A stretch of DNA of 40,875 nucleotides. Origin: a virus (taxonomy: Duplodnaviria; Heunggongvirae; Uroviricota; Caudoviricetes). The notes beneath the pieces are model-generated. The model did no database searches. It had not been told where the DNA came from and saw only the letters and a list, made by a program, of their open reading frames with translations. The position numbers and the translations under genes were made by a program. Shown piece by piece: positions 1-10,840 of the stretch. The stretch is taken from IMG/VR virus record IMGVR_UViG_2563366845_000003, positions 1-40,875 of that record; one strand, 5' to 3'. Every line of letters begins with the position of its first letter. The stretch's first letter is position 1.

Positions 1-1284
1 TTACTTCTTCGCCTCTGCAACCACTTTGCTACCCACGCCGCGGTTATTGTATTCCCACATGCGGTTGTAGTTAGTGTCATTCAGATTGCGCTGTACTTCG
101 TCGTTATCATCAACGTTGCCAGTATTACCCGCAAACGGACGATTGGAAATCACCGCATCGGCCCACGGTTTCGCCGTGTTAAAACCTTCGTTGATGGCGC
201 TATCACGGATCACTACCTGACCGTTGGTATTGGCATCAACATCCAGCGAGCGGCCCAGTTGCGCCACGCCATCCCCGGAAGCATTGAAACGGCTGTTTAC
301 GGCGAGGAAACCGTAGTAAATGTTGGACAGCGTAGCCGGTGCAAACACATACGCTTCTTGCTGGGTACGGGAGTTCACCACGCGGAATTCGGTGTTATCG
401 AACACCACTGCGCCGCGACCAGAAACGATATCCACATCCCCTTCAATGTAGCTGTTAGTCACCAGGGTACGCGGCTGACGGTTGCTTTCCAGACGGTTTT
501 GCACACCGCTGTTGGTGACAAAGAAGGTATTCTGGCGACCGAGAATATTGACGTTATTGATCTGCACTTTGTCGCCATCAGTACGCAGTGCCACCGCCGG
601 ATGGTTACCCGCATCTACGCTATCGCCCAGTGTGTTTTCGATGGTCAGGTTTTGCAGTTGCAGGCCATTGTTTTGTGACCAGAAGACCGCAGAACAGAGC
701 ACGCCAATGCTGTCGCTGCGTTTGCTCTGGCAGCTATCGTACATATACCACGCTGGTTTACCCGGCATATATTTGCCGCGTGGGTTGACGTCGTGACGCC
801 AGTCGGCTGGGCTCATGCCCCCATCAAGGGAAAGCCCAATTTTCACATCAATCGGTTTTTCACCTGTACCGTACAGAGTAATTCCACCCGGAGCGGCAGG
901 GACATACACCGTTCCCTGATACTCACCAGGCATCACGGCAATATACTGGCGCTTGTTGGTACGCTTGATAATTGCCGCATCTACCGCCGCCTGAATCGTG
1001 GTATGCGTTACACCTTGAGTACCCGCCGGGCCGACAACAAAGTCAGGTTGTGCAGGCAGGGTAATCGGGGAAGGATTCCACGCTGCAGCACCTGGTGTCA
1101 GGGATGCAAAATAGTGTTGAGCATCGAAATTCTGCGCTTCTTTTGCCGACAGAATCGGGCGAGAAGAGGTACCAGGCGCGGTTTGATCAGAAGGACGTTG
1201 ATCGGGCGGTGTTGAGCTACAGGCGGTCAGCGTCACGCCAAAAGCCAATGCCAGCGCCAGACGGGAAACTGAAAATGTGTTCAC
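1..1284 (-). CDS. ybhC: Host lipoprotein YbhC (pectinesterase-like / acyl-CoA thioesterase family); the gene that flanks att-lambda in E. coli
   Basis: 427 aa ORF with lipoprotein signal (LTAC lipobox) and YbhC-like sequence; GTG start at 1282..1284; lies immediately outside the att core. Confidence 0.85.
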   Translation of the reverse strand: MNTFSVSRLALALAFGVTLTACSSTPPDQRPSDQTAPGTSSRPILSAKEAQNFDAQHYFASLTPGAAAWNPSPITLPAQPDFVVGPAGTQGVTHTTIQAAVDAAIIKRTNKRQYIAVMPGEYQGTVYVPAAPGGITLYGTGEKPIDVKIGLSLDGGMSPADWRHDVNPRGKYMPGKPAWYMYDSCQSKRSDSIGVLCSAVFWSQNNGLQLQNLTIENTLGDSVDAGNHPAVALRTDGDKVQINNVNILGRQNTFFVTNSGVQNRLESNRQPRTLVTNSYIEGDVDIVSGRGAVVFDNTEFRVVNSRTQQEAYVFAPATLSNIYYGFLAVNSRFNASGDGVAQLGRSLDVDANTNGQVVIRDSAINEGFNTAKPWADAVISNRPFAGNTGNVDDNDEVQRNLNDTNYNRMWEYNNRGVGSKVVAEAKK

Positions 1285-5490: not shown

Positions 5491-5973
5491 TTATTTGATA
5501 AGAAGTGAAGGTTTCCCAACTTTGAGTTGAGCGCCGGGGATATTTATTCCTGCTTTTAGTTGGTGTTTGATTGCCAGTTTGTCGGCTTTAATTGTCGTTT
5601 CAAACTCAACGTATTCAGGAGGAAGGGCGCTTGAGTCGATGATTTCTACAGTTTCTGACGGTTTGCGGATTGTTACCTGGTGAATACCTGCTCGAATCTT
5701 TTTCTTGCCAACCATTTCAAGCGATGACGCTATATACGCCATAATGCTGTCAATCTTGTTTTGAATTACTGCGGCTCGCTCATTTAGTGACTTTGCCTCT
5801 TCCTTGAGGCGTTCAGCATAACCAGATTCATTTTTAATAATGGCAAGAAGTTGCTCTATTTTATCGGTAAATTCTCCTTCCATGCCTTCTATTGTGTCAG
5901 CAATCATCTCTGGTTCTAAATCTGAATCCATTAATTTTGCGTATTCATTGGCAATTTCATACAGTTTGCTCAC
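5491..5973 (-). CDS. Recombination-associated protein, Gp157-like (partner of RecT/Erf in many phages)
   Basis: 160 aa; GTG start with GGAGG Shine-Dalgarno; sits immediately upstream of recT; family assignment from memory of sequence character only. Confidence 0.5.
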   Translation of the reverse strand: MSKLYEIANEYAKLMDSDLEPEMIADTIEGMEGEFTDKIEQLLAIIKNESGYAERLKEEAKSLNERAAVIQNKIDSIMAYIASSLEMVGKKKIRAGIHQVTIRKPSETVEIIDSSALPPEYVEFETTIKADKLAIKHQLKAGINIPGAQLKVGKPSLLIK

Positions 5974-6859
5974 TGGCAGCCTCCAGTTTCGCTTTGCATT
6001 CTATGTAAATGGCTTGTACGTTCTGCTGCAATTTCATTCCAGATGTCAGTCGATATGCTTCTGCAAAATATCGCTTCAAATCATCCATGTTTTCTGCCTG
6101 ATCCATTTCATCACAAAGAAGTTGTGCTTTTTCCATTATTTCCTGCTGGCGTTTCCGTTCATCTTCGCGGATATCTTCCTCTGATTTGTGCGGCATAACT
6201 GGTTCCTGATGCATACCTTCATCTTCGTTAAGCAGGTGAATGGCATTATCCAGTCGCTGGGCTTTAGGCCAGTATTTGCTGGCGCGTTTAACTATTGTTT
6301 TACGCGCCATCTCTTCCCAGAATGTTTTCCACGGTCCATTCTTTGCCTTGCTCGTTGCTTCCACAGCTTTAATTTCTGCCAGACTCATTTCTTCAGTCAG
6401 GTAGTCACCATCTGCTGTTTTAACCGTGCAATAACCTCCAACAATAGAGCCTCGCTCACCAAATGCGTTGTATTTGTGGGTTGGTGCTGAATCAAGGCCA
6501 TTTGATTCATAGGTGTCGTTTGAGTACACCAGTTTGCATTGCCCCCACTTAATTGATCCTGTCGATTGCGCAAGATGAAGTAATCCCATGTAACTGATAT
6601 CAAGGCACACCATGCCGTCGCGCGGAACCAGATAAGCCAGTTTGCTGGCCGGGTTTAAGGTGATGCCGATCGCCGCAACATTGATGATGGCGTTCTGTGC
6701 GCTGGTTGGATTTGCCAGTGCCGTTTTAGCCAGGTAATCGTTTTTCTGGAAATACTGAATTGCAAACTGGCTTTCCTTAGCCCATGTCACCGTCTGTTCA
6801 GTCAATGCTCCGCAGAATAACTGCTCTTGCTGTTTAACGAATTCAACGATATTGCTCAT
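5957..6859 (-). CDS. recT: RecT-family single-strand annealing recombinase (lambda Bet analog)
   Basis: 300 aa; motif GPWKTFWEEMARKTIVKRASKYWP matches the RecT signature (GPWVTHWEEMAKKTAIRRLFKYLP in Rac RecT). Confidence 0.85.
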   Translation of the reverse strand: MSNIVEFVKQQEQLFCGALTEQTVTWAKESQFAIQYFQKNDYLAKTALANPTSAQNAIINVAAIGITLNPASKLAYLVPRDGMVCLDISYMGLLHLAQSTGSIKWGQCKLVYSNDTYESNGLDSAPTHKYNAFGERGSIVGGYCTVKTADGDYLTEEMSLAEIKAVEATSKAKNGPWKTFWEEMARKTIVKRASKYWPKAQRLDNAIHLLNEDEGMHQEPVMPHKSEEDIREDERKRQQEIMEKAQLLCDEMDQAENMDDLKRYFAEAYRLTSGMKLQQNVQAIYIECKAKLEAASEQTV

Positions 6860-7167
6860 GCTGCTTCTCCAAAAATGTGTCTGCGTTTGAATATTGCGAA
6901 GGCATATTCAGCCTTAACTCTTTCGGTTATTGCATCCCAGAACCATTCAGCGGCTTTTTCCTGATAGTTACAGTCATCATCTTCCAGCCAGTCGATAGCG
7001 TCCTTAGTGTGTTCATCTGGTTTATATGAGCGAAGCATTTCGCTTATTGGGTCGCAACGTTTGCAGAGGCGATCAACTTCACTGTTGATTCGTTCGTAAT
7101 CTTCATCAGTAAAACTTGCGATGATTTGCGATATTTCACGCTTATCATTCAGAGTCAGAATCATCAT
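6856..7167 (-). CDS. Hypothetical protein (103 aa) in the position of lambda gam
   Basis: ATGATG start; stop overlaps recT start (ATGA); acidic with several Cys; no similarity to lambda Gam apparent. Confidence 0.5.
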   Translation of the reverse strand: MMILTLNDKREISQIIASFTDEDYERINSEVDRLCKRCDPISEMLRSYKPDEHTKDAIDWLEDDDCNYQEKAAEWFWDAITERVKAEYAFAIFKRRHIFGEAA

Positions 7168-7252
7168 CTTTCTCCTGTTCTTTGTGCTGATTGAGCATTT
7201 TGTTCATCTGACGAATGAATTCCTCGTCTGACCAGTTATCTGTAAAACTCAT
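7145..7252 (-). CDS. Very small hypothetical protein (35 aa), translationally coupled to kil-like gene
   Basis: ATG 7250..7252 overlaps the kil-like stop (ATGA); translation MSFTDNWSDEEFIRQMNKMLNQHKEQEKDDDSDSE. Confidence 0.25.
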   Translation of the reverse strand: MSFTDNWSDEEFIRQMNKMLNQHKEQEKDDDSDSE

Positions 7253-7401
7253 TTCCTGCGATACCACGGAAGGTTGATAGCTGATTTCATCGCTTTATTT
7301 GCTTCAAGCCACATTTTGGAATCACCAATAAATCTGGCTATTACTGCTTTGTTTTGTGCTGCACGAAGCATCTGGTGATTGATGGCTATTTCATTGCGCA
7401 T
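7249..7401 (-). CDS. kil: Kil-like small protein (lambda Kil family, host division inhibitor)
   Basis: 50 aa MRNEIAINHQMLRAAQNKAVIARFIGDSKMWLEANKAMKSAINLPWYRRK; FIGD-KM motif recalled for lambda Kil; GGAGG Shine-Dalgarno; between cIII and the recombination genes as in lambda. Confidence 0.45.
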   Translation of the reverse strand: MRNEIAINHQMLRAAQNKAVIARFIGDSKMWLEANKAMKSAINLPWYRRK

Positions 7402-7520
7402 AACGCCTCCAGTTGTTTCTTTGCTGCTCTGATTAATTGTTTAACTCGGCGTGATAATTCAGATTCGTGCGGGTAGAAAGCGGACATGACGCCGCTACCC
7501 GCGAGCTGAAAGTGCATCAT
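7386..7520 (-). CDS. cIII: CIII-like protein (FtsH inhibitor that stabilises CII)
   Basis: 44 aa MMHFQLAGSGVMSAFYPHESELSRRVKQLIRAAKKQLEALCAMK; resembles the lambda CIII core (AGWPVAGCPSESLLERITRKLRDGW); GGAG Shine-Dalgarno; the track ORF 7386..7625 is an upstream over-extension. Confidence 0.55.
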   Translation of the reverse strand: MMHFQLAGSGVMSAFYPHESELSRRVKQLIRAAKKQLEALCAMK

Positions 7521-7584
7521 GGGTAACTCCTTATATTTGATTGCATAACGAAAACGCCTCGAGTGAAGCGTTATTGGTATGCAT

Positions 7585-7610
7585 ATAAAAAAGCCCTCAC
7601 ATTGGAGGGC
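7585..7610 (-). terminator. Intrinsic terminator on the minus strand, about 65 nt upstream of cIII
   Basis: Minus-strand hairpin GCCCTC-caatgt-GAGGGC followed by TTTTTTAT. Confidence 0.6.
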
Positions 7611-7673
7611 AAAGAAGATTTCCAATAATCAGAACAAGTCGGCTCCTGTTTAGTTACGAGCGACATTGCTCCG

Positions 7674-7700
7674 TGTATTCACTCGTTGGAATGAATACAC
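7674..7700. repeat. Perfect 9 bp inverted repeat with 9 bp spacer (GTGTATTCA-N9-TGAATACAC)
   Basis: Read directly; lies in the non-coding stretch between the two leftward terminators. Confidence 0.6.
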
Positions 7701-7728
7701 AGTGCAGTGTTTATTCTGTTGTTAGTGC

Positions 7729-7754
7729 CAAAAATAAAGGCCGGCTATGCGGCC
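7729..7754 (-). terminator. Intrinsic terminator (tL-like) at the 3' end of the accessory gene
   Basis: Minus-strand GC-only 5 bp stem GGCCG-catagc-CGGCC followed by TTTATTTTTGG; overlaps the stop codon at 7745..7747. Confidence 0.55.
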
Positions 7755-8368
7755 TCGGAAGGAAGTCCAATCATCTTATTCAAATCTTCTACCCGTAAAG
7801 CAGGAAGTGCTGTACTTGCTTTATCTGCTTCTTTTGGTAGCAACTCTTTGCTTTCAGGCCAAACTTCAATAAGTCGCTTAACTGTTGTGACTGAGTTCAA
7901 AGCAGCCCATACATTTGATTTGATATCCTTTTTCTTGACTTCAAGTTTTTGTTGCAATGCGCAGATTTCATCAAACCTTTTTGTTATTTCGTGTTCTGCG
8001 TCAAACATGCATTTATCTTTTTCTGGGGTGGGGAGCAATATATCTTCACCGTTGCCGTCTTTTCCGTATGAATGCCAGCCAACTCTTCTGCCAGATACAG
8101 TCAGATAAATTGATGTAGAACGAACATCGTATGAGTAAAATGAACATCCCAGTTTTTTAAGTTCTTCACTTATAGCTACTAACTTGGATGATAACTGATC
8201 CACTTCCTCAGTTTTCTTTTTACCGCCAAACGCAATAACTCTGGCGTCAAGTGCAAGCTGGTTCTTTAACTTTGTTACTTCTTCAAGTTCAGTGAAAACC
8301 CCAGACTTAATTAAAGCGTTACGAGCGATTTCCTCTTTCATTCTCGTAGTTAAGCGGATTGATGACAT
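7745..8368 (-). CDS. Hypothetical accessory protein (207 aa, hydrophilic, Lys/Glu-rich, coiled-coil-like); function unknown
   Basis: ATG at 8366..8368 (MSSIRLTTRMKEEIARNALIKS) with GAGAGGAA Shine-Dalgarno; the track ORF begins upstream at a TTG; followed by its own terminator; occupies the lambda ral/sieB/ea10 position. Confidence 0.7.
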   Translation of the reverse strand: MSSIRLTTRMKEEIARNALIKSGVFTELEEVTKLKNQLALDARVIAFGGKKKTEEVDQLSSKLVAISEELKKLGCSFYSYDVRSTSIYLTVSGRRVGWHSYGKDGNGEDILLPTPEKDKCMFDAEHEITKRFDEICALQQKLEVKKKDIKSNVWAALNSVTTVKRLIEVWPESKELLPKEADKASTALPALRVEDLNKMIGLPSEAA

Positions 8369-10543: not shown

Positions 10544-10840
10544 ATGGAACAAACAAGTTATAGCAAACTATCACAGCGCGACGTTGATCGCGCAGAAACA
10601 GATTTACTCATCAACCTGTCAACGCTTACCCAGCGCGGTCTGGCAAAGATGATTGGCTGTCATGAATCGAAGATAAGCAGAACGGACTGGAGATTTATTG
10701 CTTCGGTCTTGTGTGCTTTCGGAATGGCATCAGACATCAGTCCGATTAGCAGGGCTTTTAAGTATGCGCTTGATGAAATCACAAAGAAAAAATCCCCGGC
10801 CGCCACCGAGGATTTTAAGCAAATTGATATGCAATTCTGA
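10544..10840 (+). CDS. cII: CII-like transcriptional activator
   Basis: 98 aa; C-terminus [18 protein letters not shown] resembles lambda CII (KKRPAATERSEQIQMEF); HTH region [14 protein letters not shown]. Confidence 0.8.

Follow-up and report, generated by a model that had tools for sequence, protein, structure and literature searches.

CIII of phage lambda is a competitive inhibitor of the FtsH protease; the mechanism has been studied with the lambda protein, in which an amphipathic region (residues 14-37) is essential and through which CII (and sigma-32) is stabilised, and an HK022 class of CIII has also been described (PMC1838920). Kil of phage lambda inhibits FtsZ in a ZipA-dependent manner and possesses a helix-turn-helix core with a G-D turn (PMC3961180, PMC11762379). 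Nearly all lambda Kil homologues carry an RSK or RS(S)K C-terminus (PMC11762379), which is no criterion of the Pfam family. A third small protein, Arf of phage P22, aids recombination, and its molecular function is unknown (PMC12315714).

The window, that is, the whole stretch of 40,875 nucleotides analysed here, carries on its minus strand three small ORFs that jointly fill positions 7145-7520 exactly: cIII, kil and a 35-codon ORF (Table 1). All three are found where a sequence-only reading of this DNA had placed them. The DNA probably comes from a P22-like lambdoid phage or prophage, with the interval as the cIII-kil part of its early-left (pL) operon, continued by a coupled micro-ORF that fronts a recombination module. 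The closest relative is Escherichia phage Kapi1, and the query region was matched in 1039 of 5426 complete genomes. Starts and stops overlap one after another all the way from cIII to recT, the central gene of the recombination module that lies behind the small ORF. A CI-type repressor, a Cro-like protein and N (PF25694) are also encoded in the window. The locus is ordinary lambdoid-phage biology, with the small ORF as its one, mildly interesting, loose end. Functions of cIII, kil and the small ORF are putative assignments by homology, and every biochemical activity named below is an expectation of that kind.

Table 1. Features of the cIII-to-recT stretch and its context in the window
Feature	Position	Strand	Basis
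Two terminator-like hairpins (7610-7593 then T-run; 7572-7553)	7553..7610	-	consensus scan
Shine-Dalgarno AAGGAG of cIII, 6 nt 5' of ATG 7520	7527..7532	-	sequence reading; anti-SD duplex -8.8 kcal/mol
cIII, HK022 class, 44 aa, ATG start, MMHFQLAGSGVMSAFYPHESELSRRVKQLIRAAKKQLEALCAMK	7520..7386	-	PF08134, PHROG 550, identity to HK97/HK022
Shine-Dalgarno GGAGG of kil, 4 nt from ATG	7410-7406	-	anti-SD duplex -9.3 kcal/mol
kil, 50 aa, ATG start	7401..7249	-	PF06301, PHROG 2055, identity to HK97/HK022
35-codon ORF (MSFTDNWSDEEFIRQMNKMLNQHKEQEKDDDSDSE), net charge -7	7252..7145	-	PHROG 17766 E=5.1e-16; identical to Kapi1_014
Conserved 48-nt head (codons 1-16, MSFTDNWSDEEFIRQM), mosaic joint	7205..7252	-	nucleotide comparison of contexts
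Shine-Dalgarno GGAG of the 103-aa gene, inside small-ORF codons 26-27	7172..7175	-	sequence reading; duplex -7.4 kcal/mol
103-aa gene (PHROG 3486)	6856..7167	-	pN/pS 0.30
recT, single-strand annealing protein	5957..6859	-	Pfam PF03837 E=2.5e-33; PHROG 148 E=1.9e-91
cII (client that CIII should protect; context)	10544..10840	+	Pfam Phage_CII PF05269 E=5.4e-32

CIII and Kil

By homology, the identities of CIII and Kil are close to certain. CIII matches the Pfam family cIII (PF08134) over the entire model (positions 1-37 of 37; E=2e-30; 104.7 bits with a cut-off of 25 bits) as well as PHROG 550 (E=2.6e-13), and its amino acids are observed to be 100% identical to those of HK022 CIII and HK97 CIII. 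With the lambda-class family PF02061 it scores 12.4 bits (E=0.17), short of the 25.7-bit cut-off. Because the PF08134 threshold is passed and the PF02061 threshold is missed, the protein is filed by its sequence in the HK022 class and not in the lambda class. A core resembling lambda CIII had been noticed earlier; the similarity is indeed non-random (Smith-Waterman score 34, reached by 0 of 2000 composition-preserving shuffles), but the class is that of HK022. Residues 17-40 align with the essential lambda region 14-37, with lambda R32 opposite K35, and about one third of the residues in that region are common to the two proteins, the lambda protein having 54 aa and that of the window 44, ten fewer. 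Alignment and hydrophobic moment together predict a central amphipathic helix that matches the lambda 14-37 region; the computed moment is 0.53, and 10 of 2000 shuffles attain it. As a homologue of lambda CIII, the product would be an amphipathic-helix peptide that acts as a competitive inhibitor of the FtsH(HflB)/HflKC protease and is itself degraded. Inhibition of FtsH would transiently stabilise CII and favour lysogeny.

The setting is that of a lambdoid pL operon with CII encoded in the same window, and the order cIII-kil is as in HK97 and HK022. An intergenic stretch of ~225 nt with terminator-like hairpins precedes cIII, whose start overlaps no gene, and HK97 has a 'putative terminator' annotated at the position homologous to these hairpins. 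Longer versions of cIII (79 aa from TTG 7625, or 61 aa in the manner of Kapi1) were dropped in favour of ATG 7520, since they would cross the hairpins and since the Kapi1 ATG is absent in the window. The gene occupies the same pL slot as cIII of HK022, HK97 and H-19B (PF08134), past the terminator and directly upstream of, and overlapping, kil; from HK022 CIII its product shows no difference.

Kil matches Lambda_Kil (PF06301) over model positions 1-31 of 31 (E=1.7e-20; 72.6 bits, cut-off 27.6) and PHROG 2055 (E=1.2e-35), and its amino acids are again 100% identical to those of HK022 Kil and HK97 Kil. Alignment with lambda Kil gives a Smith-Waterman score of 70, which none of 2000 composition-preserving shuffles reaches. 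The alignments proposed as a check back homology for both proteins, and the labels 'cIII-like' and 'Kil-like' were right and even understated. The FIGD-KM motif ascribed to the Kil-like product is present as RFIGDSKMW (TFIGDEKMF in lambda). In the alignment, G26-D27 stand opposite lambda G19-D20 within FIGD(S/E)KM, where the Gly-Asp turn of the helix-turn-helix core is expected; the sequence of the conserved helix / G-D turn / helix core matches that of lambda Kil (ARFIGDSKMW in the window, ATFIGDEKMF in lambda). The window Kil has seven more N-terminal residues than lambda Kil, and its basic C-terminus (...PWYRRK) differs from RS(S)K, with YRRK in place of lambda RSSK. Its gene overlaps the end of cIII, as lambda kil does, here by 16 nt. 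Whereas lambda kil overlaps gam, kil in the window precedes the small ORF. Purifying selection is clear, with a pN/pS of 0.19 where the alternative frames have 0.89 and 1.59. By homology with lambda Kil, the product would be a helix-turn-helix peptide that blocks assembly of the FtsZ ring in a ZipA-dependent manner; upon derepression of pL, cells would be expected to filament.

cIII and kil are already known and biologically nothing new, the same proteins having been described in HK022 and HK97. All three genes had been thought to be missed by default annotation. This is so for the 35-codon ORF; cIII and kil are routinely annotated. On a 99.3%-identical E. coli prophage, PGAP still names the HK022-class CIII 'hypothetical protein', calls kil as 'host cell division inhibitory peptide Kil' and omits the 35-codon ORF entirely. 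All three ORFs are present in relatives: the annotation of Kapi1 holds each of them, and those of HK97, HK022 and mEp235 hold cIII, kil and a longer third ORF. A large share of E. coli prophages carry HK022-class CIII and the 35-codon ORF, and the gain for annotation is a practical one.

A coupled micro-ORF at a mosaic joint

The sequence-only reading gave the third ORF no identity. Its ATG overlaps the TGA stop of kil as ATGA, and this overlap is found in 126 of 126 copies of the small ORF, behind three unrelated upstream genes. The broader proposal that every start overlaps the preceding stop holds for the 35-codon ORF, in every copy examined, but not for cIII, which has no such overlap, nor for kil, whose 16-nt overlap is not of the ATGA type. 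Likewise, a GGAG-type Shine-Dalgarno sequence accompanies two of the three starts (AAGGAG of cIII and GGAGG of kil), whereas at the 35-codon ORF there is no more than AGGA (7257-7254; 1 nt before the ATG; -4.3 kcal/mol), a pairing that is not conserved in other upstream contexts. Since the small ORF has no usable Shine-Dalgarno sequence of its own, termination-reinitiation at the ATGA overlap is proposed as the most likely mode of its translation. GTG 7267 as an alternative start (40 aa) was dropped in favour of ATG 7252; it is without a Shine-Dalgarno sequence (+0.4 kcal/mol) and is absent from other upstream contexts. At the other end, the small ORF shares its final 23 nt with the beginning of the 103-aa gene, and ribosomes on the small ORF may also help to bring translation to that gene.

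The frame is persistent. It is open in 50/50 type-A copies found by motif scan and in 80/80 loci anchored independently on the 103-aa gene, and the ORF is intact in about 130 close copies. In the diverged modules L213, L215 and L217, identity of the 103-aa protein drops to 69-81% and synonymous sites have reached saturation (pS 0.67-0.81). These modules keep a small ORF of 32-36 codons that overlaps the gene before it by 4 nt and the gene after it by 20-29 nt, and it still encodes a W-[ST]-D-[DE]-x-F-[IY] core. In shallow polymorphism, pN/pS is 0.45 in the ORF's own frame and 1.0 and 3.39 in the alternative frames; this value neither proves nor excludes selection, because the test has little power at such small gene size, scoring even the proven gene cIII at 0.97. 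Unique mutations comprise 7 synonymous and 20 nonsynonymous changes (binomial P=0.067), a weak and not significant constraint, and in deep pairwise comparisons pN/pS comes to about 0.5, 0.5 and 1.1, compared with 0.09-0.35 in neighbouring genes.

AlphaFold2 predicts for the product one helix, residues 9-29, at a pLDDT of 71; the hydrophobic moment of the helix is 0.42, which 77 of 2000 shuffles reach. The product would be a fast-evolving acidic peptide whose conserved part, approximately the first 28 residues, would consist of a W-[ST]-D-[DE]-x-F-[IV] core followed by one amphipathic helix. A literature search with the peptide string, gp42.1 and HK022p38 returned nothing relevant, and no ribosome-profiling or proteomic evidence for the small ORF; a tryptic peptide of its product would be SFTDNWSDEEFIR. 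From the overlap and the persistent frame we infer, with somewhat better than even confidence, that the small ORF is genuinely translated and under selection.

The overlaps described above and the mosaic structure of the region are directly observed. The 48-nt head of the small ORF is common to different upstream genes and different downstream recombination modules, as seen in a combinatorial table of 126 copies. Its breakpoints are sharp: identity starts exactly at the ATG, and types A and B part at ~nt 51. Past codon 28, the tail of the small ORF is an out-of-frame reading of whichever gene comes next, with a length of 7 to at least 32 codons, and the stop always lies 20-95 nt inside that gene. 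The small ORF is always directly upstream of a recombination module, be it RecT, Erf or Rad52-like, and represents a clean case of a mosaic joint that coincides with a coupled micro-gene beside interchangeable recombination modules.

Wherever the small ORF has its 35-aa form, the 103-aa gene is present too, and the latter is coupled to recT by an ATGA overlap. AlphaFold2 models its product as all-helical (pLDDT 77), and the model has no significant fold match in the PDB or BFVD, the best being an unnamed viral protein at E=0.088, with UvsY at E about 7 amounting to noise. The protein had no match in Pfam, NCBIfam or PADLOC, and no relative of it was confirmed in a scan of species-representative genomes. 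A programmed frameshift from the small ORF into the 103-aa gene was ruled out on reading the sequence, as the overlap has no slippery heptamer. The databases contain one fusion protein (P0051), and a deletion between two GATGATGA repeats accounts for it.

Alternative readings of the small ORF

The mosaic structure could also mean that the 35-codon ORF is no functional gene and only a run-on frame, open by chance, over a conserved DNA linker at the joint; its head would then be near-identical as a recent and repeatedly used site of exchange between the cIII/kil and recombination modules. Both the linker and this account of its head are unlikely. The sharp breakpoints, on the left exactly at the ATG and on the right at ~nt 51, are what such a linker would leave, and so are a head of almost 100% nucleotide identity over three upstream and at least two downstream contexts and an out-of-frame tail of variable length past codon 28. 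The predominance of nonsynonymous polymorphism (20 vs 7), the failure of PGAP to call the ORF, and the tolerance of natural fusions and duplications of it point the same way. A passive linker, however, would lose the frame, the ATGA start, the length of 32-36 codons and the W-[ST]-D-[DE]-x-F core, all of which are kept despite saturated synonymous sites. Moreover, the left breakpoint is the start codon in every context, and pN/pS in the ORF frame (0.45) is below that in the other two. The very high nucleotide conservation of the 48-nt head would also suit a block downstream of kil that acts as RNA or DNA, for instance as a structured RNA, an antisense transcript or a promoter, but this explanation is highly improbable and was rejected: Rfam has no relevant match at E<=1, folding energy is no better than in shuffled controls (z-scores of +0.50 and -1.15), promoter-like sites are absent from both strands over 6800-7800 and terminator-like sites from within the ORF, and the diverged modules keep the ORF and not the nucleotide sequence.

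If, as preferred here, the small ORF is translated, it could still be that only the act of translation matters: through reinitiation at ATGA, ribosomes from kil (or cIII) would be handed on to the start of the overlapping next gene, whose expression would be set in this way, and the peptide would have no function. The universal ATGA overlap, the weak, misplaced and non-conserved Shine-Dalgarno sequence and the weak constraint on the peptide are in keeping with such a relay, as are a stop that always falls 20-95 nt inside the next gene and the run of overlapping starts and stops from cIII to recT. Furthermore, in two module types the next gene takes its ribosome-binding site from the 3' end of the conserved region (CAGGAGAAAG), and in Salmonella phage SPN9CC the same element stands before a different gene. 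The 103-aa gene, however, has a good Shine-Dalgarno sequence of its own (GGAG, spacing 4-7 nt), which no stable mRNA structure hides (z=+0.50), and the conserved W-S-D-E-E-F-I core, persisting through nucleotide divergence, would be needless for a pure relay. Such a relay is considered quite improbable.

Known relatives and comparison with P22 Arf

By sequence, the family of the small ORF is already catalogued, though uncharacterised: it comprises PHROG 17766, Kapi1_014 and the head of HK97/HK022 gp42.1. Kapi1_014, identical to the 35-aa ORF of the window, is annotated only as hypothetical. With HK97 gp42.1, HK022 gp42.1 and mEp235_034 (PHROG 17766 and 2123), the small ORF has in common the ATGA overlap with kil and the first 16 codons, which are near-identical in nucleotides. 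Unlike the window ORF, the HK97/HK022 type continues after codon 16-17 with unrelated sequence to a total of 52-83 aa, and what follows it is a 56-aa gene with an Erf or Rad52-type recombinase, whereas the 103-aa gene and RecT follow the ORF of the window.

Membership of the small ORF in the Arf family was not supported. P22 Arf itself scores 121 bits with PF17585 (Phage_Arf), whereas neither the 35-aa ORF nor its 52-, 60- and 83-aa variants give a match at E<=10; PHROG 2445 is reached only at E=0.062. Alignment of profiles with hhalign gives a probability of 30% (pairwise E=5.5e-4, 21 columns), which goes down to 17% (1.5e-3, 15 columns) once the profile is made more diverse. When 1.84 billion representatives were searched exhaustively with a profile, there were 29 matches, among them no Arf-type or bridging protein. 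One public source labels a family member 'accessory recombination function protein'. What is left is a motif and the gene position; the direct alignment of the small ORF with P22 Arf has a Smith-Waterman score of 41, reached by 2 of 2000 shuffles. The idea that Arf corresponds to the conserved head joined to the tail of the 56-aa gene, as in the natural fusion HK97 gp42.1, was rejected (hhalign probability 0.1%).

The small-ORF peptide may be an accessory factor of the downstream recombination module and a positional analogue, possibly a distant relative, of P22 Arf. An Arf-like recombination-accessory role is a tentative suggestion, and on balance a doubtful one. In a more general form of it, which we consider unlikely, the ~28-residue segment (W-S/T-D-D/E-x-F-I core plus amphipathic acidic helix) would be a real, reinitiation-made peptide and a general accessory factor for lambdoid recombination modules. 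It is similarly unlikely that this factor, as a functional counterpart of P22 Arf, would serve modules of the RecT, Erf and Rad52 types whatever the recombinase family, for instance by way of a common host partner and not of the recombinase. If true, the small ORF would offer a widespread and easily manipulated handle on the role of Arf-type peptides, a question open since 1991; a functional peptide would provide a route to the role of these accessory recombination peptides, which is a modest and unproven possibility.

The small ORF and P22 Arf (PF17585) are both small and acidic and lie in the same slot of pL. Arf is a very acidic protein of 47 aa encoded in the pL operon, directly upstream of a recombinase gene and overlapping its neighbours. 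The conserved C-terminal half of Arf (VEQQINLAAERQN...WDEFAG) has no counterpart in the small ORF, but near the N-terminus both have a [FW]-S-D-E-E-F-I motif, and its positions in the two nearly coincide. The gene order is kil-arf-erf in P22 and kil, small ORF, 103-aa gene and recT in the window.

The cIII-kil operon and its known genes

The sequence-only reading placed three ORFs at 7145-7520, and direct reading of the minus strand confirms them: cIII, kil and a 35-codon small ORF jointly cover exactly this interval, all on the minus strand. The 44-aa product matches Pfam PF08134 (cIII family, E=2e-30) and the 50-aa product PF06301 (Lambda_Kil, E=1.7e-20), PHROG agrees in both cases, and both proteins are 100% identical in amino acid sequence to those of HK97 and HK022. 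The homology calls of the earlier reading were thus correct; as judged by sequence, the identities of cIII and kil are settled, and both genes were already known.

Coordinates of the features discussed (window positions unless a locus is named)
Feature	Position	Strand	Basis
ORF running off left end	1-1284	-	pectinesterase-like beta-helix match, PF01095 E=3.5e-14
recT, after 103-codon ORF	6859..5957	-	strand read directly
103-codon ORF, gapless after small ORF	7167..6856	-	strand read directly
Small ORF, 35 codons, ATG	7252..7145	-	strand read directly
kil ORF, 50 codons, ATG	7401..7249	-	strand read directly
cIII ORF, 44 codons, ATG	7520..7386	-	strand read directly
Terminator-like hairpins, three in series, Nmad5 gene to cIII	7737-7756, 7593-7610, 7553-7572	-	
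Nmad5-domain protein gene	7748-8368	-	PF18757 E=3.8e-71; PHROG 1965
PGAP-called cIII, WP_000972063.1	L009 1241-1375 = NZ_CP023820.1 2760545-2760679		equivalent to window 7386-7520

Kobiler et al. (PMC1838920) distinguish two classes of CIII, that of lambda and that of HK022. The window CIII is assigned by its sequence to the HK022 class, and its score of 12.4 bits against the lambda-class model PF02061, below the threshold of 25.7 bits, is consistent with this placement. The alignment to lambda proposed earlier was run: in the essential amphipathic region CIII aligns with lambda CIII (Smith-Waterman 34, 0/2000 shuffles) and with P22 C3 (45, 1/2000), and Kil aligns with lambda Kil (70, 0/2000). 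The FIGD-KM motif noted in Kil is real (RFIGDSKMW), and G26-D27 aligns on the G19-D20 turn of lambda Kil, part of its helix-turn-helix core (PMC11762379). In a population sample, the pN/pS of kil is 0.19 versus 0.89 and 1.59 in the other frames, and purifying selection is clear. In lambda, CIII inhibits FtsH competitively, is itself a substrate of this protease and protects CII (PMC1838920), and Kil needs ZipA to inhibit FtsZ-ring assembly (PMC3961180). By homology, the mechanisms assigned here are those established for lambda: the window CIII would shield CII as a competitive FtsH inhibitor and substrate, and Kil would inhibit FtsZ-ring assembly in a ZipA-dependent manner.

The surroundings are those of a classical lambdoid early region, with genes for N, CII, a repressor of CI type and a Cro-like protein. 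The P22-like Lederbergvirus Kapi1, an Escherichia phage, is the nearest phage (97.9% identity across this kilobase). Upstream of cIII lie ~225 nt of non-coding sequence and then the Nmad5-domain gene, which sits between N and cIII; in Kapi1 an extra 83-aa gene, Kapi1_017, absent from the window, separates the Nmad5 gene from cIII. The terminator-like hairpins in this stretch number three against 1.2 expected by chance, and the middle one is the counterpart of HK97's annotated putative terminator. Presumably, N antitermination is needed for cIII-kil expression. [quoted passage not shown]

Every start had been said to overlap the preceding stop. This holds for kil (16 nt with cIII) and for the small ORF, whose start shares ATGA with the kil stop (4 nt), but not for cIII. 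Further overlaps follow between the small ORF and the 103-aa gene (23 nt), the 103-aa gene and recT (4 nt, ATGA), and recT and Gp157 (17 nt), so that ATGA-type coupling is the rule of the operon rather than a peculiarity of the small genes. A GGAG-type Shine-Dalgarno (SD) sequence is likewise found before cIII (AAGGAG, 6 nt before ATG; strong anti-SD pairing, -8.8 kcal/mol) and kil (GGAGG, 4 nt; -9.3 kcal/mol), but the small ORF has only AGGA, 1 nt from ATG (-4.3 kcal/mol), and the different upstream sequences in its other genomic contexts pair no better.

The description of all three genes as unannotated applies to the small ORF, in some pipelines only; cIII and kil are called by PGAP and in Kapi1, HK97, HK022 and mEp235. 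On a 99.3%-identical E. coli prophage, PGAP names kil, calls cIII a "hypothetical protein" and leaves the small ORF uncalled; the Kapi1 annotation includes all three, and those of HK97, HK022 and mEp235 carry a longer ORF in the third slot. NCBIfam holds no model for HK022-class CIII, Kil or the small ORF; WP_000972063.1, an HK022-class CIII, is "hypothetical protein" in RefSeq/PGAP despite its PF08134 match (2e-30). In Kapi1, cIII is annotated as 61 aa (Kapi1_016, L001 2012-2197), with a 17-codon N-terminal extension that would enter a terminator-like hairpin. In window 7520-7625 the upstream ATG of Kapi1 is missing (TLHSRRF for MLHERHF), and the 44-aa start is used by HK97, HK022, mEp235 and PGAP; the Kapi1 start is probably a mis-call. 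Overall, the observation of the sequence-only reading was partly confirmed and its interpretation partly supported.

The small ORF as a probable gene

The 35-aa product, MSFTDNWSDEEFIRQMNKMLNQHKEQEKDDDSDSE (net charge -7), is identical to Kapi1_014 and matches PHROG 17766 (E=5.1e-16) as well as positions 1-20 of PHROG 2123; no match was found in Pfam, NCBIfam, PADLOC or PDB. It is already catalogued as hypothetical, as Kapi1_014, as the head of HK97/HK022 gp42.1 and in these two PHROGs. A scan of viral contigs with a back-translated W-S-D-E-E-F-I pattern yielded 126 copies, and in loci anchored on the neighboring 103-aa gene, not on the small ORF itself, it is intact in 80 of 80. Among close copies (24 unique sequences), 20 of the unique mutations are nonsynonymous and 7 are synonymous; the ORF's own frame has a pN/pS of 0.45, the other frames 1.0 and 3.39 (binomial P=0.067). 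This evidence is weak because the copies barely differ, and the proven gene cIII scores 0.97 in the same test, implying little power at this gene size.

More telling are diverged modules reached via distant relatives of the 103-aa protein (69-81% identity). In three of them, independent gene callers predict a small ORF at the same position: MSFGETMSELEFILTMQEMLKEQENDDDSDSE (L213, 32 aa), MTGAAKQWTDEQFYHLLKDIFPTPQEQEKQDEPVTE (L215, 36 aa) and MTTPVKQWSDDAFIRLMKDLMKQEKKDESHSQRQG (L217, 35 aa), each with a 4-nt upstream and a 20-29-nt downstream overlap. At synonymous sites these comparisons approach saturation (two of the three have pS 0.67-0.81); retained nonetheless are the frame, the ATGA start, the length and a core reading W-[ST]-D-[DE]-x-F-[IY]. 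The peptide evolves faster than the neighboring proteins (31-52% versus 59-91% identity; pN/pS ~0.5, 0.5 and 1.1 versus 0.09-0.35). When 1.84 billion cluster representatives were searched exhaustively with a profile, only 29 matched, all of this narrow family; further variants with the core are among them (MSIADTWTDDAFIRLM... and MSIADTWSEDAFVRLM..., for example). In the AlphaFold2 prediction, residues 9-29 form one helix (pLDDT 71), computed to be moderately amphipathic. We lean towards regarding the small ORF as a genuine, weakly constrained, translationally coupled micro-gene, which would be made by termination-reinitiation at ATGA rather than SD-driven initiation.

A mosaic joint and alternative readings of the small ORF

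What precedes the small ORF is HK022-type kil, a cIII of lambda type or a gene whose product ends ...LIKVVKQ; the three are unrelated to one another, and each is joined to the ORF by the ATGA overlap. Downstream, the 35-aa type is always accompanied by the 103-aa gene and RecT. A 52-83-aa type is followed by a 56-aa gene plus a recombinase of the Erf or Rad52 type; together the contexts make up a combinatorial mosaic. Nucleotide identity among contexts starts exactly at the ATG and the two downstream types split at ~nt 51; the shared joint is therefore 7252-7205, the opening 48 nt. This neatly exemplifies the mosaicism already known from lambdoid phages and adds no new principle. In Salmonella phage SPN9CC, the copy shares codons 1-28 with the window's and diverges at the onset of the next gene's SD and ATG (out-of-frame run of 32 codons versus 7 in the window), so the C-terminal tail is incidental, and the conserved unit, if one exists, would be the first ~28 residues.

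The sharpness of the joint would suit a passive by-product of a recombination "linker", yet the ORF persists through saturating divergence. Alternatively, only the act of translation may count, passing ribosomes into the overlapping next gene. The next gene's ribosome-binding site is the 3' end of the conserved part, and this, like the weak constraint on the peptide, fits ribosome passage; however, the next gene has a good SD itself, no RNA structure sequesters it, and the amino acid core is conserved. An RNA-level element was not supported by Rfam, promoter/terminator scan or folding.

Several variants were observed in addition. In six loci (L034, L101, L022, L033, L120, L007) the place of cIII/kil is taken by the third upstream gene, whose product ends ...CEDIIEVTQLIKVVKQ; the ATGA overlap is present here too, and the copies behind this gene begin MSIADTW instead of MSFTDNW. 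Among natural rearrangements in public data (P0051, P0062, P0059, P0060), one joins the small ORF to the 103-aa protein's C-terminal half through a deletion between two DDD repeats (GATGATGA); the others are a Kil-small-ORF fusion and tandem duplications, in frame, of seven codons (KEFIRQM). A relic without start codon (...NWSDEEFIRQMNKMLNQHKEQEKDDDSDSE; L212 ~500-961) stands before a chimeric form of the 103-aa gene (125 aa), adjoins an injection-translocase gene on the opposite strand and looks like a recombination scar.

Candidate role and comparison with lambda and P22

Whichever recombinase family the recombination module uses, the small ORF always lies at its upstream edge. The literature search found no experiments on this ORF; one public source labels a relative "accessory recombination function protein". 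Its 103-aa neighbor, predicted all-helical (pLDDT 77) and without significant match in sequence-family and fold searches, sits where lambda has gam, with kil on one side and the annealing protein on the other.

P22 Arf is a 47-aa acidic peptide aiding Erf-mediated recombination (PMC12315714). Membership of the small ORF in the Arf family was not supported: the hhalign probability is 30% over 21 columns (pairwise E=5.5e-4) and falls to 17% with a more diverse profile, the Arf model PF17585 detects none of the variants, and the search of cluster representatives found no bridging sequences. The direct comparison of the peptides (Smith-Waterman 41, 2/2000 shuffles) nevertheless shows a similarity that, though short, is more than compositional. 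A function like that of Arf is the likeliest candidate, if a tentative one: Arf lies in the same slot, between kil and erf, and carries F-S-D-E-E-F-I near its N-terminus.
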